Below, piece by piece: positions 129-41,509 of a stretch of DNA of 64,000 nt. The stretch comes from Thermoplasmata archaeon (GTDB taxonomy: Archaea; Thermoplasmatota; Thermoplasmata; Lutacidiplasmatales; UBA184). The position numbers and the translations under genes were made by a program. Numbering within the stretch: the first letter of the stretch is position 1; the number at the start of each line of letters is the position of its first letter. The notes under the pieces are model-generated. The model did not search any database and was not told the origin of the DNA. It saw nothing but the letters and a program-made list of their open reading frames with translations. Location: NCBI GenBank assembly GCA_052325545.1, contig JBKQUP010000037.1:48459-112458 (forward strand). The letters run 5' to 3'.

Positions 129-170
129 CGCAGGTCAGCTTGGCAGAGGCGTAAGTACGGTCCCGACGGG

Positions 171-10435: not shown

Positions 10436-11119
10436 TCAGCCTTCGAGCCGTCCGTACTGGAGGAGGCACCAGGCGAATCCGATCAGCCCCGCGGCGGCCA
10501 ACACCTCGGGAAACAACGGCGTCAACCGGCCCTCGACCAAGAACATGCTTCCGACACCCGCCGCGACCACACCGGCGAGGATCCCCGCCACGAGCGCCTG
10601 GGAGGCGCTTCGGGTGACGACTCCCGCCACGGAAGTGACCCCGCCAAGGAACATCAGCAGCCCGAGCACTCCGAGGGCCAGGTGCGCCGGTATCAGGATC
10701 GGGGCCGGGGCGGTGGGCGACGTGGAGACGAGGGTGGTGGCGAGCCAGTCGACCCCGAGGGCACCGACTCCGTAGACCATGAGAGTGCCTCCGACCACGA
10801 CCCCCAGCCGGCCGGCGAGGGCGCCGACCCGGGACTGCGGGAGCGTGAAGGTCAGGTAGTGGGTCCGCAGCGCGAGGTCCTCTCCGACGGCGAGCGCGGT
10901 CAGGTCGAGGACGACCAGCGACGCGAGGCCGGCGGTGATCAGGAGGCCGAGGACCTCGGCGGTGCCCGAGGATGGAACGCGGAGGTAGAGGTCCGCGATT
11001 CCGCTGCCGATCGGCCCGGCGATGACCGGGATCAGGAGTAGCCAGATCCGGCGGGACCGGCGGAGGCGAGTGACCTCCCACCGGGCGTTGTCGACCAGGG
11101 CCGCGACCTCTCCGCTCAC
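10436..11119 (-). CDS. ABC-2-type transporter permease
   Basis: 227 aa with about 6 hydrophobic segments. 4-nt start/stop overlap with the upstream ABC ATPase. Confidence 0.6.
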   Translation of the reverse strand: MSGEVAALVDNARWEVTRLRRSRRIWLLLIPVIAGPIGSGIADLYLRVPSSGTAEVLGLLITAGLASLVVLDLTALAVGEDLALRTHYLTFTLPQSRVGALAGRLGVVVGGTLMVYGVGALGVDWLATTLVSTSPTAPAPILIPAHLALGVLGLLMFLGGVTSVAGVVTRSASQALVAGILAGVVAAGVGSMFLVEGRLTPLFPEVLAAAGLIGFAWCLLQYGRLEG

Positions 11120-12063
11120 GTCGCGTCCTCCCGACCCACCCGCTCCAAGTATCGGCGCGCGAGGTCCGGCTCGGGCGGCGAGGCGCTCACGAGCGGCAGG
11201 CCCGCTCGGATCACGCGGGCCAGTAGCGCTGCCTGTTCTGCGTCCCCTCCCGAGAATCGTGCCGTCGCGAGACGGGGTCCTTCGACCGTGACTTCGAGCT
11301 CGGGCCCGGCCGCACGAGTCACGGATTCCGCGGCCACGTCCGACCCGAAGCTAAGTCGCAGGGCCCTTCGAGCGCCGCCGGTGCCCGGACCAAGCTCTAG
11401 GTTGACCGGCTCGTCTCCCACGAGGATTCCGCTCCGCAGGAACAGCACCCGGCCGCAGACTTCCTGCACGTCCTCGATCAAGTGAGTCGAGAGCAGGAGC
11501 GTTAGCCCGCTCCGGGAAAGGATGCGAAGCACGTCCCTCAGATCGTGTCGGGCGGCCGGGTCGAGACCGAGGGTCGGTTCGTCCAGGAGCAGGACCTCGG
11601 GGTCACCGACCAGGGCCGCGCCGAGGAGCATCCGCCGCGCGAGGCCGGTGGACAGCGACCCGAACGGACGACCGAGATGCTCGGCCACCTTCATCGCTTC
11701 CGCTCCGTGGCGGGCGGCGGCCCGGCGCTCTCGGGCGGGGACTCCCTTCACTCGGGCCACATACTCCAGGAGGTCGGCTCCCGTGATGTATGGCGGGACG
11801 CCCGGGGTTTCCACGAGCGCTCCAATTCGTCGGAGGGCCCGGGTCCGGTCCCGGTAGGGGTCAAGGCCTTTGACCCGCACCGAGCCCTGGGTGGGGCGGG
11901 AAAGCCCGGCCAGCAACTTGAGGGTGGTCGTCTTGCCGGCGCCGTTCGGTCCGAGGTACCCGACCGCTTCTCCACTCTGGAGCGAGAAGCGAACGTCCCG
12001 CAGGGCGTCGTGGTCCCCGTACCGCTTCCAGACCGCGTCGACCGTCAGGACATCCGAAGGCAC
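11116..12063 (-). CDS. ABC transporter ATP-binding protein
   Basis: Walker A GPNGAGKTT, signature LSTGLARR, Walker B LLLLDEPTLGLD. Confidence 0.9.
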   Translation of the reverse strand: MPSDVLTVDAVWKRYGDHDALRDVRFSLQSGEAVGYLGPNGAGKTTTLKLLAGLSRPTQGSVRVKGLDPYRDRTRALRRIGALVETPGVPPYITGADLLEYVARVKGVPARERRAAARHGAEAMKVAEHLGRPFGSLSTGLARRMLLGAALVGDPEVLLLDEPTLGLDPAARHDLRDVLRILSRSGLTLLLSTHLIEDVQEVCGRVLFLRSGILVGDEPVNLELGPGTGGARRALRLSFGSDVAAESVTRAAGPELEVTVEGPRLATARFSGGDAEQAALLARVIRAGLPLVSASPPEPDLARRYLERVGREDAT

Positions 12064-12123
12064 GCGGAGTTCGAGCGGGAGAGGGGAATATCATCCTCGC
12101 GGTCGATGCGCCAGTGATTACCC

Positions 12124-12156
12124 GAAAGGGACGCGAGCTCGCGCGCGCGTCCTTTC
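12124..12156 (-). terminator. Imperfect GC-rich hairpin downstream of ppdK
   Basis: GAAAGGGACGCG ... CGCGTCCTTTC pairs with one bulge, 23 nt beyond the ppdK stop. Terminator role is inferred only. Confidence 0.2.
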
Positions 12157-12178
12157 GAGGGTTCGGTCGAGTTCGGGG

Positions 12179-14827
12179 TCACACCGAAGAAGAGGCCCGC
12201 TCCCCTTTGAGCGCGGCCTGCGCCGCCGCCAGCCGGGCCACCGGTATCCGGAATCCCGAGCAGCTGACATAGTTCAGTCCGACGCGATGGAAGAAGTCGA
12301 TGCTTCTCGGGTCGCCCCCGTGCTCCCCACAGATGCCGACCTCGAGGTTCGGCTTGGTCTTCCTCCCTTCTTCCACGGCGAGGGCGACGAGTCTACCTAC
12401 GCCCTTCGTATCCAAGACCTCGAACGGGCTTTCGGGCAGGATCTTCTCCTCGAGGTACTTCGCCATGAACTTCGCCTCCATGTCGTCCCGACTGAAGGCG
12501 AACGTCGCCTGCGTCAGGTCGTTCGTCCCGAAGGAGAAGAAGTCGGCGTCCGCGGCGATCTCTCCCGCGGTCAGGGCGGCCCGAGGGGTCTCGATCATCG
12601 TGCCCACCTTGTACTCGAGGCTCTCGCCCAGCTCCGCGAGCGTCCTCTTCGCGGCGGTGTCGATCACCCCTTTCAACAGGATCAGCTCCTCCTTGCCACT
12701 CACCAGGGGGAGCATGATGCCGACCTGGATCGTCTCGCCTTCCTCCGCCCGCACCTGCACGGCGGCCCGGACGATGGCCTCCACCTGGACGTCGTAGATG
12801 ACCGGATACGTCACCGCAAGCCGGCAGCCGCGATGCCCGAGCATCGGATTGTGTTCGGTCAGCTGCCCGAGCTTCCCCAACATCCTCTCCCAACGATGGA
12901 TCTCCGGAGGCCACGCCCCGCGCTTCCAGAGGGCGTCGATCTCTTCCAGCACCTTCTCCCGTTCGGGGAGGAACTCGTGGAGCGGCAGGTCGAGCAGCCG
13001 CACGACGACCGGCAGTCCTTTCATCGCTCGGAAGATCCCGAGGAAATCGTTCAGCTGGAAGGGGACGAGTCTTCGGAGCGAGTTGCTCCTCTCCTCGTTG
13101 GTCTCGGAGAGGATCATCTCCTGCATGATCTTCAGCCGGTCCGGCGCGTTGAACATCCTCTCGGTCCGGCAGAGACCGATCCCTTCGGCGTGGAACTCCC
13201 GCGCCCGGGTCGCGGCCTCGGGGGTGTCCGCGTTGGCGTACACCCCCAGGGTCCGGATGTCGTCCGCCCACTCAAGGAGCTTTCCGAACTCGGGCGTGAT
13301 CTGCGGCTCGACCGTCGGCACCTCACCGAGCATCACGTTGCCGGTCGTGCCGTCGATGGTGATGAGGTCCCCCGTCTTCACGATCGTACCGCCCTCGATC
13401 TCAAAGAACCCATCCGCCGGATGCACTCGGAGGGTGCTGCAACCCACCACCGCGGGCTTCCCCATCCCTCTCGCGACGACCGCAGCATGCGACGTCATCC
13501 CTCCCCGGGCGGTCAATACGCCCTGGGCGGCGATGATGCCCCGTATGTCGTCGGGCGTCGTCTCGGGCCGGACGAGAATGATCTTCTCCCCCTTCGCTCC
13601 CCGCGCGGCCGCCTCCGAGGTGGCCAGGACCACGATCCCGGAGACGGCTCCGGGGGAGGCGTTCAACCCCTTCGCGACGGGCTTGACCTTGACGGAGGGG
13701 TCGATCGTTCGGTGGAGCAATCGGTCTAAGTCCGCCGGGTCCAGCCGTCCCACGGCTTCGGCCTTCGTGATCAGCCCTTCGTTCGCCATCTCGTAGGCGA
13801 TCCGGACGGCGGCCGTCGCGGTCCGCTTGCCGGTCCGGGTCTGGAGCATGAACAGCTTCCCGTGCTCCACGGTGAACTCGAAGTCCTGCATGTCCCGGAA
13901 GTGGCCCTCGAGCTTCGCCGCCACGCTCTCGAGCTGGGACCGGAGCGAGCTGTCGATCGAATCGATGGGGACCGGCGTCCTTGTCCCGGACACCACGTCC
14001 TCGCCCTGGGCATCCCCCAGATACTCCCCGAAGAGCCGCTTTCTTCCGGTCGAGGGGTCGCGGGTGAAGCCGACCCCAGAACCCGAGCTCTTTCCCATGT
14101 TCCCGAAGACCATCGTTTGAATGTTGACGGCGGTCCCGAGTTCGTCGGAGATCTTGTAGAAACGTCGGTACTCCTGGGCCCTCGGGTTCTCCCACGACCG
14201 GAAGACCGCGTTCACCGCCCCCTCGAGCTGCTGCCACGGGTCCTGGGGGAACGGGGTGCCGGTCTTTTCCAGGACCAGGTCCTTGAAGGCCCGTACGACC
14301 TCCGCCATCTCGTGGGCGGGTATCTCCGGATCTTGGCTGACCCCGAGCTTCTTCTTCCGCTGGTCGAGGAGAGCCTCGAACTCTTCGCCCGGAACGCCCA
14401 CCACGATCCGGCCGTACATCTGGATCAGACGACGGTACGCGTCCATCGCAAAGCGCCGGTCGTTCGTCAGGGCCGCCATCCTTTCGGCCACGCTATCGGT
14501 CAGGCCGAGATTCAGGATCGAGTCCAGCATTCCCGGCATGGAGAACGGACCTCCGGACCGAACCGACAGAAGAAGCGGCGCTTCGGCGCCGCCGAGCTTC
14601 TTGCCGGTCTTCGTCTCCAGCTCAGCCAGCTTCGACCGGATCTCGCTGAAGAGCCCGCGGGGAACCGTCCCGCTCCGGAGGTACTCCCGGCACGCATCGG
14701 TTGTTACGACCAGGCCCGGCGGGACCGGAAGGCCGATCGAGGTCATCTCCGCCAGCCCGAACCCTTTGCCGCCGAGCGCGAACTTGTCGAGCCCTTTGGC
14801 TTCCTCGAAGAGGTAAACGAACGCCAT
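12179..14827 (-). CDS. ppdK: Pyruvate, phosphate dikinase
   Basis: 882 aa. N-terminal LGGKGFGLAEMTSIGLPVPPG, phospho-His loop GGMTSHAAVVARGMGKP, C-terminal ICGEHGGDP. Confidence 0.95.
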   Translation of the reverse strand: MAFVYLFEEAKGLDKFALGGKGFGLAEMTSIGLPVPPGLVVTTDACREYLRSGTVPRGLFSEIRSKLAELETKTGKKLGGAEAPLLLSVRSGGPFSMPGMLDSILNLGLTDSVAERMAALTNDRRFAMDAYRRLIQMYGRIVVGVPGEEFEALLDQRKKKLGVSQDPEIPAHEMAEVVRAFKDLVLEKTGTPFPQDPWQQLEGAVNAVFRSWENPRAQEYRRFYKISDELGTAVNIQTMVFGNMGKSSGSGVGFTRDPSTGRKRLFGEYLGDAQGEDVVSGTRTPVPIDSIDSSLRSQLESVAAKLEGHFRDMQDFEFTVEHGKLFMLQTRTGKRTATAAVRIAYEMANEGLITKAEAVGRLDPADLDRLLHRTIDPSVKVKPVAKGLNASPGAVSGIVVLATSEAAARGAKGEKIILVRPETTPDDIRGIIAAQGVLTARGGMTSHAAVVARGMGKPAVVGCSTLRVHPADGFFEIEGGTIVKTGDLITIDGTTGNVMLGEVPTVEPQITPEFGKLLEWADDIRTLGVYANADTPEAATRAREFHAEGIGLCRTERMFNAPDRLKIMQEMILSETNEERSNSLRRLVPFQLNDFLGIFRAMKGLPVVVRLLDLPLHEFLPEREKVLEEIDALWKRGAWPPEIHRWERMLGKLGQLTEHNPMLGHRGCRLAVTYPVIYDVQVEAIVRAAVQVRAEEGETIQVGIMLPLVSGKEELILLKGVIDTAAKRTLAELGESLEYKVGTMIETPRAALTAGEIAADADFFSFGTNDLTQATFAFSRDDMEAKFMAKYLEEKILPESPFEVLDTKGVGRLVALAVEEGRKTKPNLEVGICGEHGGDPRSIDFFHRVGLNYVSCSGFRIPVARLAAAQAALKGERASSSV

Positions 14828-14988: not shown

Positions 14989-15459
14989 ATGGGAGGGCGC
15001 GGTCAGCTGACCATGGACACTCCCTTCGCGGCGAAGGAGCGCGAAAGACGGGACCAGATGTGGGAGCAACTGGACACCCGGGCGAACCCGGACGATGCCC
15101 TGCCGCGGTTCTTGGCCGAGCTCCGAATATACCGAGGCCAGGACCGAACGTGGGCGGACCAATCGAACACCTCCGACGAGTTCTCTCCCCACGGCGTAAC
15201 GGTATCGATCATTCACACCGGCAAACGGTACAACGACGAGCTGCGTTCGGATGGATTGACGTACCAATTCCCAGCCACCAGCCGCCCCGGTCATGACGAG
15301 GCAGAGATTGCAGCGGCGAAGCGAGCGATGGAGCTCGATCTCCCCGTGTTCGTGATCACCCCGGGGATCACTCCAAAGGGCCGGCAGGTCCGCCGTGGGA
15401 ACATCACGAGGTGCGACGAGAGCGCGCGCTCCGTGGAGATCCGGTTCCAGTCTGCGTGA
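14989..15459 (+). CDS. Hypothetical protein. Pattern-level resemblance to SRA/YDG-type (PUA-fold) modified-base reader domains
   Basis: 156 aa. VSIIHTGKRYNDELRSDGLTYQFPATSRPG followed by AAKRAMELDLPVFVI resembles SIVxSGxYxDDxDxGdxlxYTGxGG ... NxALxxxxxxxxPVRVI. No nuclease motif seen. CDS call is moderate; the functional call is weak. Confidence 0.45.
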   Translation: MGGRGQLTMDTPFAAKERERRDQMWEQLDTRANPDDALPRFLAELRIYRGQDRTWADQSNTSDEFSPHGVTVSIIHTGKRYNDELRSDGLTYQFPATSRPGHDEAEIAAAKRAMELDLPVFVITPGITPKGRQVRRGNITRCDESARSVEIRFQSA

Positions 15460-17245: not shown

Positions 17246-18292
17246 TTAGCCCCAGGACGGGAACGTCCCGTCCACCGGGTTCCACCAGGCCCACCGCCCC
17301 GTCTGGGGGTTGATTCGCGGCTGGCAGAAGACCCCCACGAAGTTCGTGGGCGGCGCCGGGTTCGTCAAGAACGGCCAGTTGGGAGGCGCCGGCGGCTTCC
17401 CGATGTGGTCCATCTGGAATCGCTGGAGCAGCTGACCCCATCCCTGGTACAGGGGGTTCGGTTGGTACGGAGTCGTCCGGTAGTCGAACGCCCACGGCGG
17501 CCACCCTCCGGGGGGCATTCCCGGAACTTGGGGAACCTCGAGGGTCGATTGAATCGCAATCCCTCCCGTTCCGGTAGGGGAGGTCGAGATGTTCCCGATG
17601 GTCACCGGGACCGGGATCGAGGGGGAGCCGGTAGAGGGGGAGCCAGCGGGGAGGCGGGGTCCCCGCATCGACGCGAGCCCGCCGACGAGCCCGCCGAGCC
17701 CCAGCAACCCGCCGAAGATGATGAGCAGACCATTGAACGAGAACAGGCTCGCCGTGGCCGACACAGTGATCGTACCCACCGTCTCGGTGCCGTCGGCCGT
17801 GTCGCTGATCACGATGGTGAAGCTTCCGGCGGAGTTGTAGGTGTGGGTAAACGGTCCGAACACGCACTGGCAGTTCCCCGAAACGATCGATTGACTCTGC
17901 ACCTGCGACCCGTCGCCCCAGTTTATCGTGCCGGTAATGGGAGGATTGGCGAAGATGCTCGTGAAGAACTCGAGCGATACCGTGGAGCCGACCGCGAGGG
18001 GAGTGTTCACTCCGCCGTACGGGGACATGCACGAGCTGCCGTCGGGGGCAGTGCACGCGGTGAAAGTGTACAGCTGGTCCCCTTGTGCGGGGACGATGCC
18101 GCTCTGGGCGGCATGAAGGGAATCTCCGAGATGCTGGGAAGGGGCATCGGGCCGAGCAGCGATCGCGCCGGCGGCTACACAAAGGCAGCACCCGAGAACG
18201 ATGCAGCAGACCCAAATCGTCGACCGGGAGCGAGCGATGGACCGGGACGACGCTCCGACCCTTTGGCCGGAACGCGACTGGCGAGCGTACAT
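17246..18292 (-). CDS. Type-I-like membrane protein: signal/anchor, PKD-like Ig domain, TM helix, and a Pro/Trp-rich cytoplasmic tail
   Basis: N-terminal IWVCCIVLGCCLCVAAGAIAA. GTINWGDGS ... HTYNSAGSFTIVISD matches the PKD WGDG/HxY pattern. TM LLIIFGGLLGLGGLVGGL. Tail rich in P, W, N and Q. Confidence 0.6.
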   Translation of the reverse strand: MYARQSRSGQRVGASSRSIARSRSTIWVCCIVLGCCLCVAAGAIAARPDAPSQHLGDSLHAAQSGIVPAQGDQLYTFTACTAPDGSSCMSPYGGVNTPLAVGSTVSLEFFTSIFANPPITGTINWGDGSQVQSQSIVSGNCQCVFGPFTHTYNSAGSFTIVISDTADGTETVGTITVSATASLFSFNGLLIIFGGLLGLGGLVGGLASMRGPRLPAGSPSTGSPSIPVPVTIGNISTSPTGTGGIAIQSTLEVPQVPGMPPGGWPPWAFDYRTTPYQPNPLYQGWGQLLQRFQMDHIGKPPAPPNWPFLTNPAPPTNFVGVFCQPRINPQTGRWAWWNPVDGTFPSWG

Positions 18293-32620: not shown

Positions 32621-34978
32621 GTGTCCCGGACGCGGCCCAGACCCCCCGAGACCGAGGAGCTCTCGGAGTGGCAAATGGTGCCTCATCCTCCGCGAGAGCG
32701 TCGCTCGGAGGAGGTTGTCGCCTTTCGTGAGCGTCTGGTCGCGTCCTTGCGGGTCGGGCACGGACTGGGGGCCTCGTTCGCCGTGCGCCTCGTTTCCGGT
32801 CCGGTCCCACGGCTGACGCTAGCTTGCTCGGAGCCGGCGAGCGCTCGCTGGGCGAGCCGAATCTTGTTCTCGGCCTATGGGCGTACCTTGTGGGTCCGTC
32901 GGCCCCGGTCTCCTCCCGACCCGGTCATCGACCCGCGCTGGGGCCGGCGGGTCCGCGAATGGCCGGAGCCCCTCCGCGACCCCGTGGACGGGCCCTCCGC
33001 CATCGACAGCCTGGCCCTCGCCATGAGCGGGGTCGTCCCCGGCGTTTCGGTCCGTTGGGGGTTCCACCCCTGCCCGGCGACCTGGAGCCGTCCTCGTGTC
33101 CTCGTCGGGGCGGAGAGAATCCCGCCGCCCGCCGAGGGAAGGCGACCCGGGGACCGAACGCCCCGAGCCCGTCACCCCGAGGCCCCGATTACGACGCGAC
33201 CGTTCCCCCTCTTCTGGAGGGCGAGCGTGTCCGTTGCGCTCCTCGGCCGGGAGGCGGGTGAACTCGTCTCGGTCGAACGGGTCCGGCCGGCGATCGAGGT
33301 CGCCTTACGGTCGGGGCGGGCGAACGGGATCCGTTTCCCCCGAGATCGCCTCCGCCTCCCCTGGCTCTCTCGGTGGCTCCTCCTGTCCGAGGACGAGCTC
33401 GCCTGCGTCCTACCGAGCCTCGATGGCGGAGGAGCCACCCTCGAAGGCCGGGAGGTCGAAGGCCTGCCCATCCTGCCGCTCGGCCGGTCGACGACCGGTC
33501 GAGTGGTCGGCCCGCCGGTGGAGACCGACCAAGGGCGCCACCTCGCGGTCCTCGGGGAAACCGGTATGGGAAAGAGCTCTACCCTCGTCGCGGTCGCTCG
33601 GAAGGCGTCGACGCTCGGCGGCGTGGTCCTGTTCGACCCTATCGGGGAAACCGCCCGGTCGTTCCTCTCCGGCCTTTCGACCGACGAGCGCTCCCGGCTG
33701 GTCTCGGTCTCTCCCCACGGACCGGCGAGCGGGATCAACGCGCTCGAGGGGATCGGCGGAAGCGAGACCGACCCGGTCCTCTCCGACCGGAGGCTCAACG
33801 ACATCGTTCACGCGCTGCGTCGGGTCCGCTCGGGCCGGTATGCGGACTCGAGCTACTGGGGCCCTCGGCTCGAGGAAATGCTGACCCGGGCCGTCCGCGC
33901 GGCCGCGTCGTTTCCGTCCGGCACCCTCGCCGACGCCCACACCCTCCTCGCGACCGGGGGGAGAACGCGCCAGGTCGTTCCTCCCGAAGCCCAGCAAGAG
34001 GTTCGTGAGCTAGCGGACCGGGTCCGCGAACGCCCGGAGGACGCCGAAGGGGCCCGCCGCCTCCTCTACGAGGTGGTCCGGAGCCCGGTCCTTCACCGGA
34101 TGCTCTGCGAACGGAACCCGGTGCTCCACGCGAGGGAGCTCGTGGAGACCGGCCGGATCGCGGTCATCTCCGGCGATGCGTCGGCGGTCGGGGAATCGGT
34201 CGCCCGCTACCTCTTGGCCGTGTACCTGGCCCTGGTTTGGTCCGAGCTGCTCGCGCGGACGTCCAACCCGAAGACGTTCGTCGTGCTCGACGAGTCGCAG
34301 TGGTTCTCGCACGAGAGCCTCGCCGAGATGCTCCGTCTCGCCCGGCGAAGGAACGTTCACGTCGTCCTGGCGACCCAGACCGTGGGTTCCCTACCCGAAG
34401 CCGTCGCCGACGCCGTGTGGACGAACGTCTCGGACTTCATCGCGTTCCGTGGCTCGCCCGAGGAAGCGCGGGAGCTCTCCCGGGCGACGCGCGGGCTCTC
34501 GGTCGAGGAGCTCCTCGCGCTCCCGCGAGGTCAGGCGGCCGTACTCCTGGGCAAGGGGAACTCCGTCGACTGGGTGCGCACCGCCGGCCGCCCGACCGGG
34601 CCCGACCCGTATTCTCGGGATGAGGAAGAGGCCCCGCTGGACCCGGCTCCCAGGACCGGAAGGACTGGACCCCCGGCAGAGAGCTCGACCGCGACCGTCC
34701 AGCAGGTCCTTTCGTGGATCCTGGGACGAGCCCAGGCCCTTCCCGCAGGAGAACCGCTCCGGATAGAGCTCTCCGAGCTCCGTAGGTTGGTCGACCCGGA
34801 TGGGCGGGCCATCCGGGAAGCCGGCGCGAGGCTCGGCCGTGCGGGTGCGTTGGTCTCCGGCGTCCGTTCGGCCGGGGGCTCAGTCTGGGTCCTTGACCCT
34901 GCGAAGATTCCTGCCGTGACGGAGGAGACGCCCCCCTCCCCCTCCTCGGAGGGTTCTCACGGTCCACAACCCTCTTAG
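32621..34978 (+). CDS. HerA/FtsK-superfamily (DUF87-like) P-loop ATPase with an unassigned ~300-aa N-terminal region and a ~110-aa C-terminal extension
   Basis: Walker A LGETGMGKSST, then VLFDPIGE, a long helical-looking insert, Walker B FVVLDESQWF, then RRRNVHVVLATQTVGSLP. The start could instead be the ATG at 32675. Confidence 0.7.
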   Translation: MSRTRPRPPETEELSEWQMVPHPPRERRSEEVVAFRERLVASLRVGHGLGASFAVRLVSGPVPRLTLACSEPASARWASRILFSAYGRTLWVRRPRSPPDPVIDPRWGRRVREWPEPLRDPVDGPSAIDSLALAMSGVVPGVSVRWGFHPCPATWSRPRVLVGAERIPPPAEGRRPGDRTPRARHPEAPITTRPFPLFWRASVSVALLGREAGELVSVERVRPAIEVALRSGRANGIRFPRDRLRLPWLSRWLLLSEDELACVLPSLDGGGATLEGREVEGLPILPLGRSTTGRVVGPPVETDQGRHLAVLGETGMGKSSTLVAVARKASTLGGVVLFDPIGETARSFLSGLSTDERSRLVSVSPHGPASGINALEGIGGSETDPVLSDRRLNDIVHALRRVRSGRYADSSYWGPRLEEMLTRAVRAAASFPSGTLADAHTLLATGGRTRQVVPPEAQQEVRELADRVRERPEDAEGARRLLYEVVRSPVLHRMLCERNPVLHARELVETGRIAVISGDASAVGESVARYLLAVYLALVWSELLARTSNPKTFVVLDESQWFSHESLAEMLRLARRRNVHVVLATQTVGSLPEAVADAVWTNVSDFIAFRGSPEEARELSRATRGLSVEELLALPRGQAAVLLGKGNSVDWVRTAGRPTGPDPYSRDEEEAPLDPAPRTGRTGPPAESSTATVQQVLSWILGRAQALPAGEPLRIELSELRRLVDPDGRAIREAGARLGRAGALVSGVRSAGGSVWVLDPAKIPAVTEETPPSPSSEGSHGPQPS

Positions 34979-34980
34979 GG

Positions 34981-35817
34981 ATGGAACGGCTCGTTCTACC
35001 GATGGAACTTCCTCCCGCTCCGCCGCCGGCGCCTCCGACGGCGACCCCGGCCGCGGACGGGCTGCTGCCACCGGCGGTGGTCCTGGAACGGTGCGAGTCC
35101 GGCATCGAGGGGCTCGACAGCATCCTGGAAGGGGGGATCCCGCGCGGGAACATGGTCCTCGTGGCCGGGAGCGTCGGCACGGGGAAGACGACCCTCTGCC
35201 TCGAGTTCCTGGTCCGCGGGGCGGAACGGGGAGAGCGGTCGCTCTTCCTGTCGGTCACCGAAGCCTCCCGGAAGCTGATGCAGAACCTCTCCACCTTCGA
35301 GTTCTTCCATAAGGACCTCGTGGAGAAGGGCTCGCTCGTCTTCGTCGACCTCCCGAAGGCCTACGACCGCCTGGGACTGGGTCGGGAGGAGCTCACCAGC
35401 GAGGAGATCGGGATCGTGCTCCGAACGATCCGGGACCTCGTCCAGTCGCTGGGCATCCGTCGTCTCGTCCTGGATAGTCTGACGTCGGTGTGCTACCGGA
35501 TCCGTCGGGAAGAGCAGATCCGGGACTTCATGCTCCGCCTCGGACAGGAGCTCAACGAAGCGGGCTGCACCTCGCTCCTCGTCTCGGAGATCGGCCCGAC
35601 CCCGGGCCGCTACTCGCTCCACGGCGTGGAGGAGGCGATCGTGGATGGGGTCATCCTGCTCTCGAACTCCCATCGGATGGGCGACATCCTCCGGGTCCTC
35701 CAGGTCATCAAGATGCGCGGGACCTCGCACTCCCACGCCCAGTTCGTCATCCAGCTCACCCCGATCGGGATGCTGATGGCCCCGCACTTAAAGGGCGGGC
35801 GGGAAGGAGGCGCCTAG
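34981..35817 (+). CDS. KaiC/RadA-like single-domain ATPase (motifs intact)
   Basis: IEGLDSILEGGIPRGNMVLVAGSVGTGKTTLCLEF, catalytic-Glu context LFLSVTEAS, Walker B RRLVLDSLTS. Starts 2 nt after the upstream stop. Confidence 0.8.
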   Translation: MERLVLPMELPPAPPPAPPTATPAADGLLPPAVVLERCESGIEGLDSILEGGIPRGNMVLVAGSVGTGKTTLCLEFLVRGAERGERSLFLSVTEASRKLMQNLSTFEFFHKDLVEKGSLVFVDLPKAYDRLGLGREELTSEEIGIVLRTIRDLVQSLGIRRLVLDSLTSVCYRIRREEQIRDFMLRLGQELNEAGCTSLLVSEIGPTPGRYSLHGVEEAIVDGVILLSNSHRMGDILRVLQVIKMRGTSHSHAQFVIQLTPIGMLMAPHLKGGREGGA

Positions 35818-35820
35818 ACC

Positions 35821-36408
35821 GTGGCCCCAGAGGTCGACCTCGGGGAGCGGCTCCGGGGATTGCCAAGCGGCAGCGCGGTGGCCCTGAAGCTCGACCCACG
35901 CGAGTACGCCGACCACTACTTCGCGGTCCTCAACGCGACCCTTAGGGACGTCGGGAGCGAGACGGACGCCCACACGATCTACCTCACCGTCACGAACCCG
36001 GCCGCGTTCGTCTGGACGCTCGCCCAGGCGCTGGACGTCCCGCCGGACCGGATCTCGTTCGTCGATGCGATAAGTCACATCATGATGAACTACGCCAACC
36101 CGCTCCCGAACGCCACCTACGTGGAGAGCCCCCGGGCGCTCGAGGAGATCATGCTCCGGATCGAGTACCTGCTCCGGAAGTTCCCTCATCCCCGAGAGAT
36201 CGTCGTAATCGACAGCGTGAACTCCCTCGCGATCCACAATCAGCCCGAGCTCCTGTCCGAGTTCTTCCACATCCTGTTGAACAATCTGAAGTCCCGCCAG
36301 GTGCTCACGCTCGTGCTCGAGACCTCCGAGGAGGAGACCACGGGGATCGAGCAGATGCTGAACCTCGTGGTCGACGAGACGATCGACGTCGGACGGGTGG
36401 GGCACTAG
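35821..36408 (+). CDS. KaiC/RecA-like paralog lacking a Walker A motif (predicted inactive)
   Basis: Retains the fold-like spacing and Walker-B-like IVVIDSVNSL. The P-loop position reads LKLDPREYADHYF and the Glu position reads TVTNPA. GTG start 3 nt after the upstream stop. Confidence 0.5.
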   Translation: MAPEVDLGERLRGLPSGSAVALKLDPREYADHYFAVLNATLRDVGSETDAHTIYLTVTNPAAFVWTLAQALDVPPDRISFVDAISHIMMNYANPLPNATYVESPRALEEIMLRIEYLLRKFPHPREIVVIDSVNSLAIHNQPELLSEFFHILLNNLKSRQVLTLVLETSEEETTGIEQMLNLVVDETIDVGRVGH

Positions 36409-36410
36409 TC

Positions 36411-37175
36411 ATGGCCGACCCGGACCGGATCTTCGGGATCCCCGAGATCGACCAACCGACGTGGACGGCCCTGCCCCCGGGCTGGCTCTCCATCCTATCG
36501 GGGACCTCGGGCTCCGGGGCCCCGCTTCTGGCGAAGCAGTTCGCCCACGCGGGGGCGGGGCCGGTTCCCGTCCTCTTCTACACGACCTACGAGCGCACGG
36601 AGGACGTCAAGAAGGCGTTCGACGACTTCGGGTGGGACCCGGGCGAGATCCGGATCGTCAACCTGGCCGACGAGTACTTCGAGCGCGTGCTCGTCCGGGG
36701 GCTCGAGATCGCGAAGGCGCGCGAGGGCGGGATCACGCTGGGCGAGCTCGTCGATGTCCGGCCGCAGGACCGGGCCCTGACCCCCTTCAGCCTCACGAAT
36801 CGGATGCTCTCCGACCTGGCGAACATCGATTCCCCCTTCCGGCTGGTCGTCGATTCGGTCGATTTCTTCCTCGAGGTGATGGAGCCCCACGAGCTGACGA
36901 CGGTCGCCCGGCAGATCCGCCACCGGTGCCAGACGATCGGGGGCCATGCTCTCCTCACGGCCCACTCGATCGCCCACGAGCGCGCGGTCTACGGGCTCCT
37001 CCAGGACCTCGCGGACCTCGTCTTCGACCTGTCGGCCGAGCCGCGCGGTGACCACTTCGAGCACACGCTCTCCGTCCAGAAGGTGGCGAACCGACCCGAC
37101 CTCACGCACATCTGGAACGCGGAGCTCGGCGAGACCGGCTGGCACGTCAACGAGCGCGCGGCCGCGCCACGATAG
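36411..37175 (+). CDS. KaiC/RecA-like paralog with a degenerate Walker A (GTSGSGAP, no Lys-Ser/Thr)
   Basis: IFGIPEIDQ...LPPGWLSILSGTSGSGAPLLAKQF mimics the KaiC N-terminus. Walker-B-like RLVVDSVDFF. ATG 2 nt after the upstream stop. Confidence 0.55.
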   Translation: MADPDRIFGIPEIDQPTWTALPPGWLSILSGTSGSGAPLLAKQFAHAGAGPVPVLFYTTYERTEDVKKAFDDFGWDPGEIRIVNLADEYFERVLVRGLEIAKAREGGITLGELVDVRPQDRALTPFSLTNRMLSDLANIDSPFRLVVDSVDFFLEVMEPHELTTVARQIRHRCQTIGGHALLTAHSIAHERAVYGLLQDLADLVFDLSAEPRGDHFEHTLSVQKVANRPDLTHIWNAELGETGWHVNERAAAPR

Positions 37176-37243
37176 CGGCCTACCGAGCGGTAAGCTAACC
37201 TTTATCGCCCTACCCCGGCTCCTTTGGGGGAGGTCGAAAACCC

Positions 37244-38044: not shown

Positions 38045-39193
38045 ATGTCCGAACCGGCCGAGCGAACGCCGTCGGCGGAGGACGCTTCCCGTCGCGAGCG
38101 GGTCCGGGACCTCCTACGGCGGGCCGCGGACCCGGACGGGTTCGTCCCGTTCGACCGGTTCATGGAGGTCGCCCTCTACGGCGAGGGAGTGGGGTTCTAC
38201 ACCCGCGAATCTTCGCCGTTCGGGCCGGAAGGAGATTACTACACGGCGGCCCATACGAGCCCGCTCTTCGGGCGCGCGATCGCGCAGCGCGTGCGGTCGG
38301 TCGTCTCGGCGACCCCTCCCGGCGCTCCGTTCCGCGTGCTCGAGCTCGGGCCGGGGGACGGGACCCTCGGGGAGAGCGTGCTCCGCGGCCTCGCCGGGGA
38401 ACCCGCGGTGCGGGACCGGGTGGAGTACGTGCTCGTCGACCGTTCCCCCACGCTCTCCGTGAGGGCGTACGAACGGGTCTCGGCGGCGGGGCAATCGGTG
38501 GGGATCCCGGTGAAGGCGGCCGGGGGCGTCGGTGCGGACGGGCCGTTCACCGGGGTGGTGCTGGCGAACGAGGTGCTGGACGCGCAGCCGGCCCGTCGCC
38601 TTCTCTGGGACGGCGAGTGCTGGGAGGACATTGGGGTCCGGCTCACGGACGACGGCTTTGTACCGGCCACCGCTCCTCGCGACCGGCCCGTGCCGGCCCC
38701 CGAGCTCCCTCGGGCCCCCGCGTTCGGCACCGTGGCCGAGGTCTCTCCCATGGCCGAGGCGCTCGTCCGAGAGGTCGCGGACCACCTCGTCGCCGGTCTC
38801 TTCCTCGTGCTCGACTACGGAATGGAGGAGTCCGAGCTCGTCGTCGCCCACCCCTCGGGGACCCTCGCGGCCGTGCGACGTCACCGCTACGTCAGCGACC
38901 CGTTCGAGGAGCCGGGGACGTGTGACCTGTCGGTCTTCGTCAACTTCACCCGCGTGCGCGCCGTCGCTGCCTCGGCCGGCCTGCGGGAACTGTCGTTCCG
39001 ACGCCAAGCGGAGGCGCTGGGCGAGTGGGGATTCCCGCGGTTGCTCGAGGAGGCGATCCGCTCCGCGCCCTCGACCGAGGCCGAGGTCCGCATCCGCCTG
39101 GCGGCGAAGAACCTCCTCTTCGGGTTCGAACGGTTCCACGCGCTCGAGCTGGCCCCGCCGGAACGCGCCGGCCGCTCCCCGGCCGCTACGTGA
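38045..39193 (+). CDS. MidA/NDUFAF7-like (DUF185) SAM-dependent methyltransferase
   Basis: FDRFMEVALYGEGVGFYT, LELGPGDGTL, VVLANEVLDAQP and SVFVNFT follow the DUF185 pattern. Confidence 0.65.
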   Translation: MSEPAERTPSAEDASRRERVRDLLRRAADPDGFVPFDRFMEVALYGEGVGFYTRESSPFGPEGDYYTAAHTSPLFGRAIAQRVRSVVSATPPGAPFRVLELGPGDGTLGESVLRGLAGEPAVRDRVEYVLVDRSPTLSVRAYERVSAAGQSVGIPVKAAGGVGADGPFTGVVLANEVLDAQPARRLLWDGECWEDIGVRLTDDGFVPATAPRDRPVPAPELPRAPAFGTVAEVSPMAEALVREVADHLVAGLFLVLDYGMEESELVVAHPSGTLAAVRRHRYVSDPFEEPGTCDLSVFVNFTRVRAVAASAGLRELSFRRQAEALGEWGFPRLLEEAIRSAPSTEAEVRIRLAAKNLLFGFERFHALELAPPERAGRSPAAT

Positions 39194-39857
39194 CCGGCCG
39201 GTTCGGCGAGCTTTCGAGGATCTCCACGACCTTCGCCTCGACGAGCAGCCGGGCGGTCTCGGGAGGCAGGGTGAGAACGTCGTCGGTCTTCAGGTTCACC
39301 GTTTCGGAACCGACCTCGACCGGTCGCGAGTCCTTGAGCACCCGTACGTAGACGACCGGGGGACGCATCCGAAGGGCGGACGTCGCGACGGCGCTGCGAA
39401 CGGGAAGAGCCGGGGCGGGAGGTGCCGCCGGGCCCTCGGCCGGGCGGGCGGCCGAAGGCGGGGCGAGGCCGGGCGTGGGTTCGATGTAGGCGGCCTCCGA
39501 GCGGCGATGTTCGAGGAGGACGGAGAGGACCTGGTCGAACATCCCGCGTTCCTCGGGAAGGGTGTTCACGAGGTCCCGGCTTCCACCGATGCTCGCCTGG
39601 AACGCCGCGTTGAGGACCTTCTGGGCCCGACCTTCGACGATGTCCCGAGCGACCTGGATCGCGCGCTGATAGGTCTGCCGAGAGATGTCCCCCTTCCGGC
39701 CGGAGGGGTTCTCCCGGAGCTCGGATTCGTACGACCGGCGGAGGTCGACGAGGTAGGCCGAGGTCGCGGCGTAGAACTCGGGGGGGAGCTTCGCGAGGCC
39801 GCGAACGGCGAGCTCGTTGCGACGCCATTCGAGCAGTTGGGTGAAGTGGTCGGGCAT
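39186..39857 (-). CDS. GINS subunit (Gins51-like)
   Basis: N-terminal LLEWRRNELAVRGLAKLPPEFY ... RAQKVLNAA (A-domain pattern). C-terminal VYVRVLKDSRPVEVG ... DDVLTLPPETARLLVEAKVVEIL (B-domain pattern). Confidence 0.6.
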   Translation of the reverse strand: MPDHFTQLLEWRRNELAVRGLAKLPPEFYAATSAYLVDLRRSYESELRENPSGRKGDISRQTYQRAIQVARDIVEGRAQKVLNAAFQASIGGSRDLVNTLPEERGMFDQVLSVLLEHRRSEAAYIEPTPGLAPPSAARPAEGPAAPPAPALPVRSAVATSALRMRPPVVYVRVLKDSRPVEVGSETVNLKTDDVLTLPPETARLLVEAKVVEILESSPNRPVT

Positions 39858-41092: not shown

Positions 41093-41509
41093 TCAGGCGC
41101 CGCCGTTCTTCGCTACGGTCACCCAGGGGAGACGGGACTCCGCCGGCCGGAGCACTTTCGCGGTGGCGTGGCTCTCGGTCGCGATCGCCCGTTCGAGGTG
41201 GGTCACGATCTCCCGCACGAGTCGGTCCATCCGCGGTCGCTCTTCGGCGGGGACCTCGGTGGGCCGCTCCCACACGAGGGCGGCCCCGCCGCTCGTGGGG
41301 TAGAACCGGAACTCGAGAGCGGAGGCCGCCGGGGGGACCGCGGGGTTCATCTTTTCGAGACGGCCCTTGACCCGGCTCTCGCTGGGCTCGGAGGTCTCCG
41401 ACCGCTCGACCGTATAGCCGATGGTGCCGAGGAAATCGGCGAGGTACGTCGCGAACCGCTCGCGACCGATCCCGCGGACCCTCAGCCAGTCGCCGTTACC
41501 TTCTCCCAT
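41093..41509 (-). CDS. Hypothetical protein (138 aa)
   Basis: ORF between the SPOUT methyltransferase and L15e, overlapping the upstream stop by 14 nt. No motif recognised. Confidence 0.4.
   Translation of the reverse strand: MGEGNGDWLRVRGIGRERFATYLADFLGTIGYTVERSETSEPSESRVKGRLEKMNPAVPPAASALEFRFYPTSGGAALVWERPTEVPAEERPRMDRLVREIVTHLERAIATESHATAKVLRPAESRLPWVTVAKNGGA

Follow-up and report, generated by a model that had tools for sequence, protein, structure and literature searches.

VirB4 proteins are the motors of bacterial DNA-transfer machines, and the translocase analog HerA comes from the HerA-NurA-Mre11-Rad50 operon. The RadA/Rad51 paralogs (archaeal RadC-type proteins, Rad55-Rad57, BCDX2) form heteromers with ATPase-deficient members, and the KaiC-like RadC proteins of archaea have a role in repair. 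The KaiC-family ATPases also adjoin the FtsK-HerA-superfamily secretion ATPases of the archaeal type IV pili, for which they have been proposed as regulators (PMC4858521). The concept of an inactivated KaiC, or “iKaiC”, is already in print (PMC5847659, citing Makarova 2017).

The locus described here lies within a window of 64 kb, that is, the whole stretch of DNA that was analyzed. It consists of four open reading frames on the plus strand, located as first reported (with gene 2 then read from 34981):

32621..34978, + strand: gene 1, an ORF of 785 aa encoding a VirB4-like ATPase
35002..35817 (probable; the ORF is 34981-35817, 278 aa), + strand: gene 2, a KaiC-family ATPase
35821..36408, + strand: gene 3, an ORF of 195 aa encoding an inactivated KaiC-like protein (iKaiC)
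36411..37175, + strand: gene 4, an ORF of 254 aa encoding a KaiC-like protein with a variable P-loop that lacks the Lys

The third-position GC of the four ORFs (0.83-0.94) is typical for real genes, in a genome of 69% GC, and the motifs listed in the preliminary description are all present: GETGMGKSS, DPIGE, VVLDESQ, and VVLATQ in gene 1, GSVGTGKTT and LVLDS in gene 2, and the Lys-less LDPREYAD and GTSGSGAP in genes 3 and 4, respectively. The P-loop gene noted at the left edge of the window was also found; it is a minus-strand gene that starts around position 128 and continues past the edge.

The full-length AF2 model of gene 1 (pLDDT 78.7) has as its best match the full-length TrwK/VirB4 chain 8rtd_O (E 5.7e-14, TMq 0.48, 823 columns), from the R388 type IV secretion system. 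The following features are distinguished in this gene:

32621..33475, + strand: N-terminal domain (aa 1-285), with a VirB4 N-terminal-domain-like alpha/beta fold
33554..33577, + strand: Walker A motif GETGMGKS (aa 312-319), from the ortholog alignment (n=28)
34277..34297, + strand: Walker B motif VVLDESQ (aa 553-559), with D557 and E558 invariant in the orthologs
34697..34894, + strand: C-terminal domain (aa 693-758), with a winged-helix-like topology

The N-terminal ~300 aa had been described as showing no recognizable motif, and Pfam has no match to this domain. When the domain is modeled separately (AF2, pLDDT 81.2, pTM 0.77), however, all five of the Foldseek PDB matches with E <= 0.001 are TrwK/VirB4 chains (8rtb_A, 8rtd_O/T, and 7o43_B/A; E 2.6e-4 to 9.8e-4, TMq 0.40-0.47), while the top match outside VirB4 reaches only E 0.048. 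Given this, the domain is neither unassigned nor an effector domain. Two of its residues, W77 and W91, never vary, and conservation reaches 90% or more at R76, R80, and other positions (alignments A1, A5, and A6). In the Walker A motif, G312 and T314-G315-M316-G317-K318-S319 are invariant across the 28 orthologs, with E313 conserved in 90% or more. A separate folded domain is indeed present, as had been suspected, in the last ~110 aa of the protein; in the AF2 model it follows a disordered linker (aa 657-688, pLDDT below 50) and has an H-E-H-H-E-E secondary structure (pLDDT 84-91), with R732, G735, L738, and W756 invariant across the orthologs. Pfam found nothing in this domain, which is assigned as a putative wHTH from the topology of the model alone.

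The description of gene 1 as a HerA-type protein stands at the level of the superfamily, given the Pfam matches to DUF87/HerA-central and AAA_22 and the presence of HerA structures (4d2i, 9x1m, and 7wrx) among the fold matches, but membership of HerA itself fails. The NCBIfam HerA models score gene 1 at ~24 bits, versus cut-offs of 800 or more, the protein has no NurA partner, and its N-terminal domain is VirB4-like, in contrast with the HAS-barrel of HerA. The closest relatives of the ATPase core are the VirD4-like coupling proteins, the DndH C-domain, Mad8, and HerA, that is, DNA-transfer or DNA-translocating ATPases. The strongest sequence-profile (HMM) match is to the PADLOC mad8 model (4.8e-21 over aa 286-642), several PADLOC HerA defence models match weakly, the DndH C-domain and TdpA rank among the top fold matches, and aa ~300-670 are 23-29% identical to plasmid T4SS coupling proteins (tblastn). 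The possibility that the module might map to a conjugation/T4SS coupling-protein cluster, raised in the preliminary description, thus holds for the ATPase, which falls in the VirB4/VirD4 conjugation family. It does not hold for the cluster, which is not a conjugation cluster. Gene 1 has no hydrophobic segment of the membrane-helix type. It encodes a soluble ATPase whose catalytic motifs are intact and whose N-terminal and motor domains both resemble VirB4. Its orthologs are 39-82% identical to the window protein, and no relatives were found in viral contigs, so that, with only distant relatives in plasmids, a recent mobile origin is not visible.

As first read, gene 2 encodes an intact KaiC-like ATPase with a single domain. 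It has a match of 1.5e-53 to Pfam KaiC (PF06745), PDB profile matches to KaiC (8zn5, 4.9e-66), PH0186, PH0284, and SSO2452, and an invariant Walker A V58-G-T-G-K-T-T64, E68, D158-S159, and K237-M-R239-G in 25 orthologs. Genes 3 and 4 were likewise correctly recognized as KaiC derivatives rather than members of unrelated families. Gene 3 matches PF06745 at 9e-07 (28.9 bits, cut-off 26.6, aa 77-189) and DUF7504 at 1.2e-4, being related to DUF7504/DUF7090, and its P-loop is wholly absent, even in distant relatives. This is the best conserved of the four genes, with a median identity to the window of 84% (49% in gene 1), and has 554 relatives in a library of 50%-identity cluster representatives. 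Gene 4 matches PF06745 over its full length (3.2e-11) and PH0186 in the PDB profiles (2.8e-9), and its P-loop, GxSGSGAP, takes variant forms, without the Lys in every ortholog examined; the corresponding members of the distant trios have GPPGAG(L/T).

Genes 2-4 are shown to be an ancient, tightly coupled unit in several Thermoplasmatota lineages. The gaps are of 2-4 nt between genes 2 and 3 and 1-2 nt between genes 3 and 4 in about 65 loci, which upholds the proposed translational coupling for these three genes, and the order KaiC, iKaiC, KaiC-like, with overlapping genes, is retained in two distant MAGs (L086 and L094). Pairs or trios of KaiC and Lys-less KaiC occur without gene 1 in the Methanomassiliicoccales and other archaeal MAGs, where the housekeeping context is not kept and the neighbors are pilins, peptidases, and transporters, including Pilin_N genes in L086, L088, and L090. 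The trio is, then, older than its association with gene 1, and a set of active and pseudo-KaiC proteins, which is not peculiar to this module, also fits the iKaiC concept.

The trio might also be taken as the counterpart of the RadA/Rad51 paralogs in a module of DNA repair or recombination, with gene 1 as the associated DNA translocase. The matches of gene 2 to SSO2452, RadA, RadB, and RAD51 paralog entries (all much weaker than its match to KaiC), the HerA structures matched by gene 1, the name “KaiC/GvpD/RAD55 family” given by JGI to the gene 3 family, and the repair role of the archaeal RadC proteins all point in this direction. Gene 2 is, however, much nearer to KaiC (4.9e-66) than to RadA (4.3e-5), the window contains no NurA, Mre11, Rad50, or any nuclease, the distant units lie beside pilin genes rather than repair genes, and the N-terminal domain of gene 1 is not a HAS-barrel, which makes this reading improbable.

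The four-gene cluster is part of the core genome of about 140 uncultured Thermoplasmata species from soil and peat, and the hosts with gene 1 directly upstream of the trio form one order-level clade, probably the Lutacidiplasmatales. The gene order, whose conservation had been left to a survey, is maintained on the same strand in 63 of the 65 related loci that extend far enough downstream. The genes lie in a housekeeping neighborhood of ~15 kb (L1-L10-P1-purF-Nop56/58-fibrillarin-DRG ... PAC2-methyltransferase), with a SpoU methylase also among the neighbors and a TATA-like CCTTTATC downstream of gene 4, ahead of PAC2. As this whole neighborhood is as syntenic as the cluster itself, the conserved adjacency of gene 1 and the trio is weak evidence here.

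The locus is thus fixed among core housekeeping genes, and not in the defence or mobile island that had been envisaged. An anti-virus defence system, combining a HerA/Mad8/DndH-type translocase with KaiC-like sensors, would agree with the mad8 and HerA defence matches of gene 1 and with the DndH and TdpA folds, but is barely credible. The MADS partners (the kinase Mad6, the DptG-like Mad7, and the methylase) are all absent, the PADLOC models match neither gene 3 nor gene 4, and no effector domain was found at the locus, as the preliminary description had observed. The flanking genes, which in 63 of 65 loci are those of ribosome biogenesis and of a proteasome chaperone, do not mark a variable island, and this universal, syntenic, and vertically inherited pattern refutes the reading.

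The nearby Nop56/58, fibrillarin, DRG, and SpoU methylase genes would, in turn, fit an Elp456-like heterohexamer, in which three different RecA/KaiC-fold subunits, mostly ATPase-dead, assemble as a 2:2:2 ring for the binding of RNA or tRNA. Weak Pfam matches (PAXNEB/Elp4 in gene 2, 0.0067, and Elong_Iki1/Elp5 in gene 3, 0.017) recur in the distant P0244 and P0256, and in the KaiC partners in L090 and L093. Every one of these matches is under the Pfam cut-off and far weaker than the KaiC matches, however, the window has no Elp3 gene, and the units in other orders do not share this housekeeping context, which makes this reading very unlikely.

The interval between genes 1 and 2 differs from the first account. 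The orthologs do not share the ATG at 34981 and begin gene 2 at the equivalent of 35002, the probable start, leaving a gap of typically 23 nt, rather than the 2 nt reported, so that tight coupling does not extend to genes 1 and 2. This interval contains:

34965..35001, + strand: promoter-like element conserved in the orthologs, spanning the gene 1 stop codon
34972-34979, + strand: TATA-like box CTCTTAGG of this element, before gene 2
34986-34995, + strand: block ACGGCTCGTT of this element, before gene 2

Across 57 unique loci, the consensus of the element (CACAACCCTCTTAGGGnCGGARCGGCTCGTT) shows 80-99% conservation, against an identity of only about 45-50% among the gene 1 proteins. The box varies among loci as CTCATAGG, ATAAAAGG, and CTAAAAGG, the gene 2 ATG sits 15-16 nt downstream of ACGGCTCGTT, and the element occurs once in the window. 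In two species (L004 and L006), insertions of 1.5-2.9 kb part genes 1 and 2, and the element stays upstream of gene 2. Given this strong conservation, genes 2-4 are probably driven by a promoter of their own. Gene 1 is also found without an adjacent trio in one lineage (L070), and probably in L063. The single operon and stoichiometric four-protein complex proposed at first are thus not established.

These observations are the basis of the main rival explanation, in which the genes are neighbors only, with genes 2-4 a self-contained KaiC/iKaiC signaling unit. Gene 1 would be a VirB4-like ATPase specific to this clade, with no relation to the trio, that came to lie beside it in a highly stable part of the core genome, and it may be what is left of a mobile element after domestication. 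The element retained ahead of gene 2 when gene 1 is displaced, the occurrence of each part without the other, the insertions, and the uninformative adjacency all favor this explanation, as do the rates of evolution, given that gene 1 evolves ~4x faster (mean distance 0.91, versus 0.22-0.24 in genes 2 and 3). The residual rate covariation peaks within the trio (0.58 for genes 3 and 4, 0.39 for genes 2 and 4). For gene 1 it is -0.02 with gene 2, and the 0.37-0.43 obtained with genes 3 and 4 does not stand out against the value for fibrillarin (0.36), an unrelated gene. This explanation is nevertheless somewhat less likely than the one preferred below, considering the shared strand and the spacing, which is fixed at 23 nt in most of the ~140 species and would permit read-through, the precedents in which a KaiC-like protein is paired with an FtsK-HerA-superfamily motor (PMC4858521), and the distance of gene 1 from its plasmid relatives and its absence from viral contigs.

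The explanation tentatively preferred here is that a heteromeric KaiC/iKaiC switch regulates a VirB4-like, probably DNA-handling, motor. The three KaiC-like proteins would assemble into a RecA-type ring of mixed subunits, with ATP hydrolysis or autophosphorylation confined to those of gene 2. Acting as a nucleotide- or phosphorylation-dependent switch, this ring would, in the probable Lutacidiplasmatales clade, bind to the hexameric motor or gate it in some other way, much as the KaiC-like ArlH acts on the archaellum motor ArlI, or VirB11 on VirB4. The predicted promoter of genes 2-4 would allow the switch to be made independently of the motor, which probably works on DNA, with the winged-helix-like tail as the part that would hold it. 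The spacing, strand, and order retained as the identity of gene 1 drops to 40%, the Pilin_N genes beside the distant units, and the DNA-translocating relatives of the gene 1 core are consistent with the switch, while the equal synteny of the region, the separate occurrence of gene 1 and trio, the insertions, the promoter-like element, and the rate and covariation of gene 1 count against it, as does the lack of a membrane partner, pilin, or T4SS component in the window. The literature search found no paper on this pairing, in agreement with the preliminary description. The component families are known, and it is the combination of a VirB4-like ATPase with a KaiC/pseudo-KaiC trio that is undescribed; under the preferred explanation, the motor would have a role in the transfer or uptake of DNA, or in a process linked to filaments, rather than in defence.

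The four genes of the module lie exactly at the coordinates proposed for them in the preliminary description, all on the plus strand, and all of the motifs quoted there were found in the predicted proteins. Their third-position GC of 0.83–0.94, in a sequence of ~69% GC, is the signature of real genes.

32621–34978, plus strand: gene 1, predicted VirB4-like ATPase of 785 aa
34981–35817, plus strand: gene 2, intact single-domain KaiC
35821–36408, plus strand: gene 3, predicted KaiC-derived protein lacking the Walker A lysine
36411–37175, plus strand: gene 4, predicted KaiC-derived protein lacking the Walker A lysine

Gene 2 is, as had been proposed, a canonical single-domain KaiC-like ATPase. 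It falls within the KaiC family PF06745 at 1.5e-53 (182 bits, against a cut-off of 26.6), with aa 39–264 aligned to positions 2–224 of the 231 of the profile, and its closest solved relatives are KaiC (8zn5, 4.9e-66), PH0186, PH0284, and SSO2452. The catalytic motifs (V58-G-T-G-K-T-T64, E68, D158, and K237-M-R239-G) are invariant in 25 orthologs, and are also kept in the distant relatives. The protein does not correspond to that of the KaiABC oscillator, being single-domain and 271–278 aa in length, and no KaiB-like or KaiA-like gene was found in the operon or in the window.

The description of genes 3 and 4 as KaiC-like proteins without the P-loop lysine was also borne out, given that both exceed the PF06745 cut-off of 26.6 bits (9e-07 and 28.9 bits for gene 3; 3.2e-11 and 43.5 bits for gene 4) and that the lysine was never seen in their orthologs. 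The match of gene 3 is confined to its C-terminal two thirds, and a conserved LDPREYADHY stands in place of its P-loop segment; in the distant relatives, the P-loop is deleted. No PDB sequence relative of gene 3 was found, and profile–profile comparisons with genes 2 and 4 returned weak E-values, because the alignments are shallow; the hhalign comparison with gene 2 (E 0.14) is, yet, in register on the hhhhDS motif. Gene 4 resembles KaiC from end to end and matches PH0186 at 2.8e-9, while its P-loop, GxSGSGAP, is variable among the orthologs and never contains the lysine. Judged from their sequences, genes 3 and 4 are inactivated KaiC (iKaiC) proteins, combining homology to the KaiC fold with the loss of the Walker A lysine.

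A search of 1.84 billion cluster representatives recovered 554 relatives of gene 3, of which 83 are below 1e-10. Most of these are stand-alone proteins of ~190 aa, and some are the C-terminal domains of large TPR/SNAP-repeat proteins, in the Altiarchaeota, for example; the domain is C-terminal in P0286 (923 aa) and P0316 (1776 aa, Altiarchaeota), two of these homologous proteins. The relatives carry DUF7504, DUF7090, DUF835, and weak KaiC signatures, and some are labelled FlaH by JGI. In PMC5847659, DUF835 is listed as an “inactivated KaiC (iKaiC)” domain, so that genes 3 and 4 fit a published concept. Genes 2 and 4 match the ArlH/FlaH models weakly, at 21–35 bits against a cut-off of 215.

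Gene 1 was modelled with AF2 on 28 orthologs (pLDDT 78.7). The model comprises an alpha/beta N-terminal domain (aa ~15–265), a RecA-like motor with an all-helical insertion (aa ~385–510), a disordered linker (aa 657–688), and a small folded tail domain with the topology H-E-H-H-E-E (aa 693–758), in agreement with the separate C-terminal domain noted previously. This tail is winged-helix-like, by its predicted topology only. The best PDB fold match of the full-length model is TrwK/VirB4 of the R388 type IV secretion system (T4SS), 8rtd_O (E 5.7e-14, TMq 0.48 over 823 aligned columns, for the AF2 model), followed by the DndH C-domain, HerA, TrwB, TdpA, and the VirB4 C-domain. The N-terminal 285 aa, modelled separately with the full-length homologues (pLDDT 81, pTM 0.77), match only five TrwK/VirB4 chains (8rtb_A, 8rtd, 7o43) at E <= 0.001, with E-values of 2.6e-4 to 9.8e-4 and TMq of 0.40–0.47; the best match outside VirB4 is at E 0.048, and HerA chains are absent from the best 50 fold matches listed. 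The N-terminal domain, which had been left without a recognised motif and as a possible effector, is thus, by its modelled fold, similar to the N-terminal domain of VirB4, and not an effector. The two-domain fold of VirB4, in which an alpha/beta N-terminal domain is joined to a RecA-like motor with an all-alpha insertion, is present in gene 1 on the evidence of AF2 models rather than of solved structures. Both Walker motifs, A and B, are intact, being invariant or nearly so in the 28 orthologs. Gene 1 differs from TrwK in its additional C-terminal winged-helix-like domain.

At the sequence level, gene 1 scores 9.7 bits on the VirB4 model TIGR00929, against a cut-off of 643, and has no match to the Pfam VirB4 family (CagE_TrbE_VirB); its Pfam matches are to DUF87/HerA-central (DUF87 28 bits) and AAA_22, with TrwB_AAD_bind (16.7 bits, cut-off 20.5) and TraG-D_C (17.3 bits, cut-off 22) below threshold. 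The earlier assignment to HerA was not upheld, as the equivalog models score 12–24 bits against cut-offs of 800–970 (NF040937 23.6 vs 800; NF040819 12.6 vs 970; NF042943 21.9 vs 800), the N-terminal domain is VirB4-like in the model, and there is no NurA gene nearby. The best PDB sequence match, HerA 4d2i (8.1e-06), covers the P-loop region only, and the CedD model matches weakly (0.0035). The motor is most similar in sequence to the VirD4/TraG/TrwB proteins and to Mad8: its closest sequences are plasmid proteins annotated as “T4SS DNA-binding domain” and “TraM recognition” (23–29% identity), tblastn against annotated plasmid coupling proteins gave E 2e-16 to 6e-6 among the 15 matches listed, and the PADLOC mad8 profile matches at 4.8e-21. 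TrwB and the DndH C-domain also recur among the fold matches. Gene 1 differs from the VirD4/TraG/TrwB coupling proteins in the absence of a relaxase partner and of an N-terminal transmembrane anchor, the N-terminal domain being a predicted soluble alpha/beta fold; no membrane segment was found in the protein, in which the highest 19-residue Kyte–Doolittle mean (1.59) falls inside the ATPase core. Given that gene 1 fails the cut-offs of both the HerA models (~20 bits) and the VirB4 TIGRFAM, it is placed in a new clade-specific family of the VirB4/VirD4 branch of the FtsK–HerA superfamily.

The identical protein in the public (NCBI) annotation, P0001, is of 664 aa (85% coverage). The ~120 N-terminal residues left out of it (window 32621–32983, ~121 codons) are conserved across the 28 orthologs, and the AF2 models fold them with confidence; the deposited start probably lies too far downstream. 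An origin of gene 1 from a conjugative plasmid or a virus was also considered, and found no support: the plasmid matches are distant (23–29%), the haloarchaeal plasmid homologues of the motor have no KaiC neighbours, no relative was found in IMG/VR, and the BFVD fold matches are large VirB4-like phage proteins only.

More than 300 homologues of gene 1 were recovered, of ~785 aa, and all those bearing an organism name are labelled Thermoplasmata archaeon. When each GTDB species was scanned through one genome, relatives turned up in 140 stretches; 79 of the 80 loci kept are titled as Thermoplasmata or Thermoplasmatales MAGs, UBA184 included, largely from soil and peat surveys, judging from the isolate names. 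UBA184 is part of the Lutacidiplasmatales (TMEG), uncultured soil archaea of ~69% GC (PMC9287336). The DNA of the window is probably from this order. The order of the four genes is conserved among these genomes: of the 65 loci that extend 2.6 kb or more past gene 1, 63 have it, each with a PAC2 gene behind gene 4. On the upstream side, 61 of 62 loci have a DRG GTPase gene in divergent orientation, and the wider neighbourhood is equally fixed, with L1, L10, P1, purF, Nop56/58, and fibrillarin upstream and Methyltransf_28 after PAC2. Orthologs of gene 1 share a median of 49% identity with the copy in the window, those of gene 2 78%, of gene 3 84%, of gene 4 68%, and of DRG 79%, so that conservation among the four is highest in the “dead” gene 3 and lowest, by a wide margin, in gene 1; the trio formed by genes 2–4 is as conserved as the adjoining DRG GTPase and PAC2 genes.

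The remaining genes of the window are housekeeping genes (FtsY, prefoldin, ArgRS, QueC, PPDK, pyruvate kinase, and others), and these surroundings place the locus in the core genome rather than in an island of defence or mobile genes. Gene 1 differs in this from the VirB4 of a T4SS, being a core chromosomal gene that is not carried on a mobile element, and no VirB2/3/6/8-like or other T4SS or conjugative-pilus gene was found in the 64-kb window or within 8 kb on either side of the related loci. A defence system would agree with the mad8 and HerA profiles, which are the only ones to match. According to the authors of MADS, Mad8 is a HerA-like translocase whose partner is a DptG-like protein, and their MacSyFinder model makes Mad6 (a kinase) and Mad7 (DptG-like) mandatory; none of the other MADS models matches genes 2–4 and neither of these genes lies nearby, and gene 1 also lacks the DndFG and DptFG partners of the DndH/DptH translocases. 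Together with the fixed housekeeping context, this led to the rejection of the defence-island reading, and a defence role is considered extremely improbable.

Other features of the window, outside this neighbourhood, are as follows.

1–128, minus strand: partial P-loop gene, starting near 128 and running off the left edge (MAANLNLPTELSLFLNRPAPQAMLIRGPPGTGKTMLALEILE)
442–1656, plus strand, and 1815–3077, minus strand: two convergent ammonium-transporter (Amt) genes, side by side
8399–10363, minus strand: 654-aa protein with an adenylate/guanylate cyclase catalytic domain and TPR repeats
3385–3987, 4084–5850, and 10436–11119, minus strand, and 14989–15459, plus strand: high-GC3 ORFs without a Pfam match
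17246–18292, 39186–39857, and 41093–41509, minus strand: further high-GC3 ORFs without a Pfam match
61263–61335, plus strand: tRNA gene, the sole Rfam match in the window

The P-loop gene at the left edge had been proposed as a further KaiC-like gene; its start near 128, on the minus strand, was confirmed, but its 42 residues do not settle a KaiC identity. A Walker A ~25 residues from the start fits a KaiC-like protein, and GPPGTGKT is also the AAA+ consensus. The cyclase–TPR signalling architecture is seldom discussed in archaea, the ORF at 10436–11119 encodes a polytopic membrane protein beside an ABC ATPase, and the GC content falls to 0.60 in the last 2 kb.

The transcription of the module appears to be less simple than a single operon. 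The gaps between genes 2 and 3 (2–4 nt) and between genes 3 and 4 (1–2 nt) are short in nearly all loci of the clade. The 2-nt gap reported between genes 1 and 2 had to be revised, as it rests on an ATG at 34981 that is absent from the orthologs; in these, the two genes are typically 23 nt apart, equivalent to a start of gene 2 at 35002. The junction contains a conserved nucleotide element, and a second TATA-like sequence follows the trio.

34965–35001: conserved element over the gene 1 stop codon, with a TATA-like box (CTCTTAGG) and a second block (ACGGCTCGTT)
37196–37210: TATA-like CCTTTATC, ~35–40 nt 5' of the PAC2 start (37244), marking the 3' boundary of the gene 2–4 transcription unit

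The consensus of the junction element, CACAACCCTCTTAGGGnCGGARCGGCTCGTT, is 80–99% conserved per position in 57 unique loci, though the gene 1 proteins are just ~45–50% identical, and it takes in the final codons of gene 1 together with the spacer of 23 nt. Its first block, with the variants CTCATAGG, ATAAAAGG, and CTAAAAGG, behaves like an archaeal TATA box in its sequence, and lies ~23–30 nt 5' of the ATG of gene 2, a spacing that would make the transcript leaderless or nearly so. The second block lies 15–16 nt 5' of the same ATG. Its conservation is unusual for a location between a TATA box and a start, and greater than an ordinary promoter spacer would show; elsewhere in the window it recurs no more than chance would predict, and it may represent an operator or form a small hairpin (GGAACG-GCT-CGTTCT). 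In L004 and L006, two close relatives in which an insertion of 1.5–2.9 kb sets gene 1 apart from gene 2, the element is retained ahead of gene 2. This retention, together with the conservation of the TATA-like element, indicates that genes 2–4 very probably have their own promoter. The inserted DNA of L004 includes a 550-aa ORF without a Pfam match (10900–12552, minus strand), and in L006 the extra DNA lies at ~10100–11500 and gene 1 looks frameshifted, possibly through a long-read assembly error. The frequent “QPS” at the C-terminus of gene 1 was considered as a docking tail for the trio and rejected; since many orthologs that have the trio lack it, it is read as a by-product (CAA CCC TCT TAG) of the stop-overlapping element CAACCCTCTTAG.

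The four-protein stoichiometric machine of HerA and KaiC subunits envisaged in the preliminary description is, given this, only partly supported, as the gene order is conserved but the trio has a promoter-like element of its own. The main rival to a functional link is mere proximity, with gene 1 and the trio simply lying side by side in a region of great stability. This is rather unlikely, and agrees with the promoter-like element, the insertions of L004 and L006, and the four-fold difference in evolutionary rates. In one sub-lineage, represented by the related locus L070 (7809–11613; also by L063), gene 1 (41% identity) lies directly before PAC2, with no trio at the locus and only a low-complexity ORF in the 0.5-kb interval. 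The rate covariation of gene 1 with genes 3–4 (0.37–0.43) is, furthermore, not above that with fibrillarin (0.36), while that between genes 3 and 4 (0.58) is the highest among the genes tested.

The trio is also found elsewhere without gene 1. Distant relatives of gene 3 (36–40% identity) were examined in context in five loci, of which L086 and L094 have a trio of overlapping KaiC, iKaiC, and KaiC-like genes, and L088, L090, and L093 have a KaiC–iKaiC pair, with no relative of gene 1 nearby in any of the five. The gene 3 relative of L090 is labelled Methanomassiliicoccales, and L088 has the same gene order. In the distant trios, the lysine is also missing from the gene 4 homologue (GPPGAGL/T), and from the gene 3 homologue the entire P-loop is gone, so the inactivation is ancient. 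The trio is, then, older than its link to gene 1. An arrangement similar to the junction element, CTTTAG...GAACGG, precedes the KaiC gene in L088. Genes of archaeal type IV pilins (Pilin_N), one or two in number, follow the KaiC and iKaiC units within ~0.1–1.5 kb in three of these loci, from Methanomassiliicoccales and an unclassified lower-GC MAG.

L086, 6725–7873: Pilin_N after the KaiC and iKaiC unit
L088, 8725–9213: Pilin_N after the KaiC and iKaiC unit
L090, 10022–10531: Pilin_N after the KaiC and iKaiC unit

These genes hint that the ancestral KaiC and iKaiC unit was tied to a surface filament. In L086, a 1435-aa TPR protein is encoded divergently beside the trio (1–4305, minus strand), which suggests a recurrent association of TPR with iKaiC.

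The reading tentatively preferred here, at less than even confidence, is that a hetero-ring of KaiC and iKaiC proteins regulates the adjacent VirB4-like, probably DNA-handling, motor. The three KaiC-like proteins would assemble into a heteromeric RecA-type ring, in which gene 2 alone would turn over ATP; such a ring is proposed because of the tight translational coupling, the order fixed over a large distance, and the covariation of genes 3 and 4. In the clade of the window, the ring would control the adjoining motor, which would probably act on DNA, given its nearest relatives and its winged-helix-like tail. Regulation of this kind would have precedents in ArlH–ArlI and in the association of KaiC-family ATPases with FtsK–HerA-superfamily secretion ATPases and pilus loci in archaea (PMC4858521), and the pilin neighbours of the distant units would fit it. 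The more specific proposal of a domesticated, membrane-free VirB4-type core motor gated by a KaiC/iKaiC/iKaiC hetero-ring in a soil archaeal order is doubtful.

ArlH (FlaH)–ArlI is similar in pairing a KaiC-like protein with a hexameric motor of the FtsK–HerA superfamily, and differs in having one KaiC-like subunit, where the module has three distinct ones, and a motor of the ArlI/VirB11 type rather than the VirB4 type; no ArlI/VirB11-type ATPase with an ArlJ/TadC platform and no pilin or class-III signal-peptide gene was found in the window, and no membrane partner of gene 1 in the 64 kb. A DNA repair module, as in HerA–NurA, would share the ATPase superfamily, but the N-terminal domain of gene 1 is VirB4-like in the model, where HerA has a HAS-barrel, and no NurA, Mre11, or Rad50 gene is found in its neighbourhood; this alternative is improbable. 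The heteromers of Elp4–Elp5–Elp6 and of the Rad51 paralogs offer an analogy, in that different RecA/KaiC-fold paralogs, most of them catalytically dead, are encoded or assembled together. The matches to them are weak and below the curated cut-offs (PAXNEB 16 bits vs 28; Iki1 15.1 vs 22.5), with no Elp3 or recombination partners, and an Elp456-like RNA-binding ring is very improbable. The closest published frame is that of the archaeal KaiC/iKaiC signalling hubs of Makarova, Galperin & Koonin 2017, which, as cited in PMC5847659, would also encode an active single-domain KaiC with KaiC-derived proteins that have lost the ATPase motifs; the module would differ from these in its fixed-order trio and in the link to a VirB4-like ATPase.

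Each part of the module is of a known kind, namely KaiC, iKaiC, and the ATPases of the VirB4/VirD4 branch. The earlier statement that no described system pairs such a motor with a KaiC trio stands for the linkage itself, which was not found in the literature searched, but the iKaiC concept had already been published. The fixed KaiC–iKaiC–KaiC-like trio as a unit was not found in that literature either, though it may have been listed in the 2017 KaiC survey, and nor was a soluble ATPase of VirB4 architecture with a winged-helix-like tail, in the core genome and without T4SS genes nearby.

Archaeal KaiC-like ATPases are numerous and have been proposed as signalling hubs, and for nearly all of them neither a partner nor an output is known. 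With one live KaiC paralog and two dead ones in a fixed trio beside a recognisable motor, the module represents a concrete and testable pairing, although the organisms that carry it are uncultured. The VirB4 architecture of a soluble core protein also bears on the reuse of conjugation-type motors in archaea, as in the VirB4/HerA-like ATPases of the DNA import systems Ced and Ted. If the more specific proposal of a domesticated, gated motor is true, the module would be the first case of a KaiC-type ATP/phosphorylation switch acting on a DNA translocase of the T4SS family, in the regulation of DNA exchange, DNA uptake, or chromosome handling, for example.
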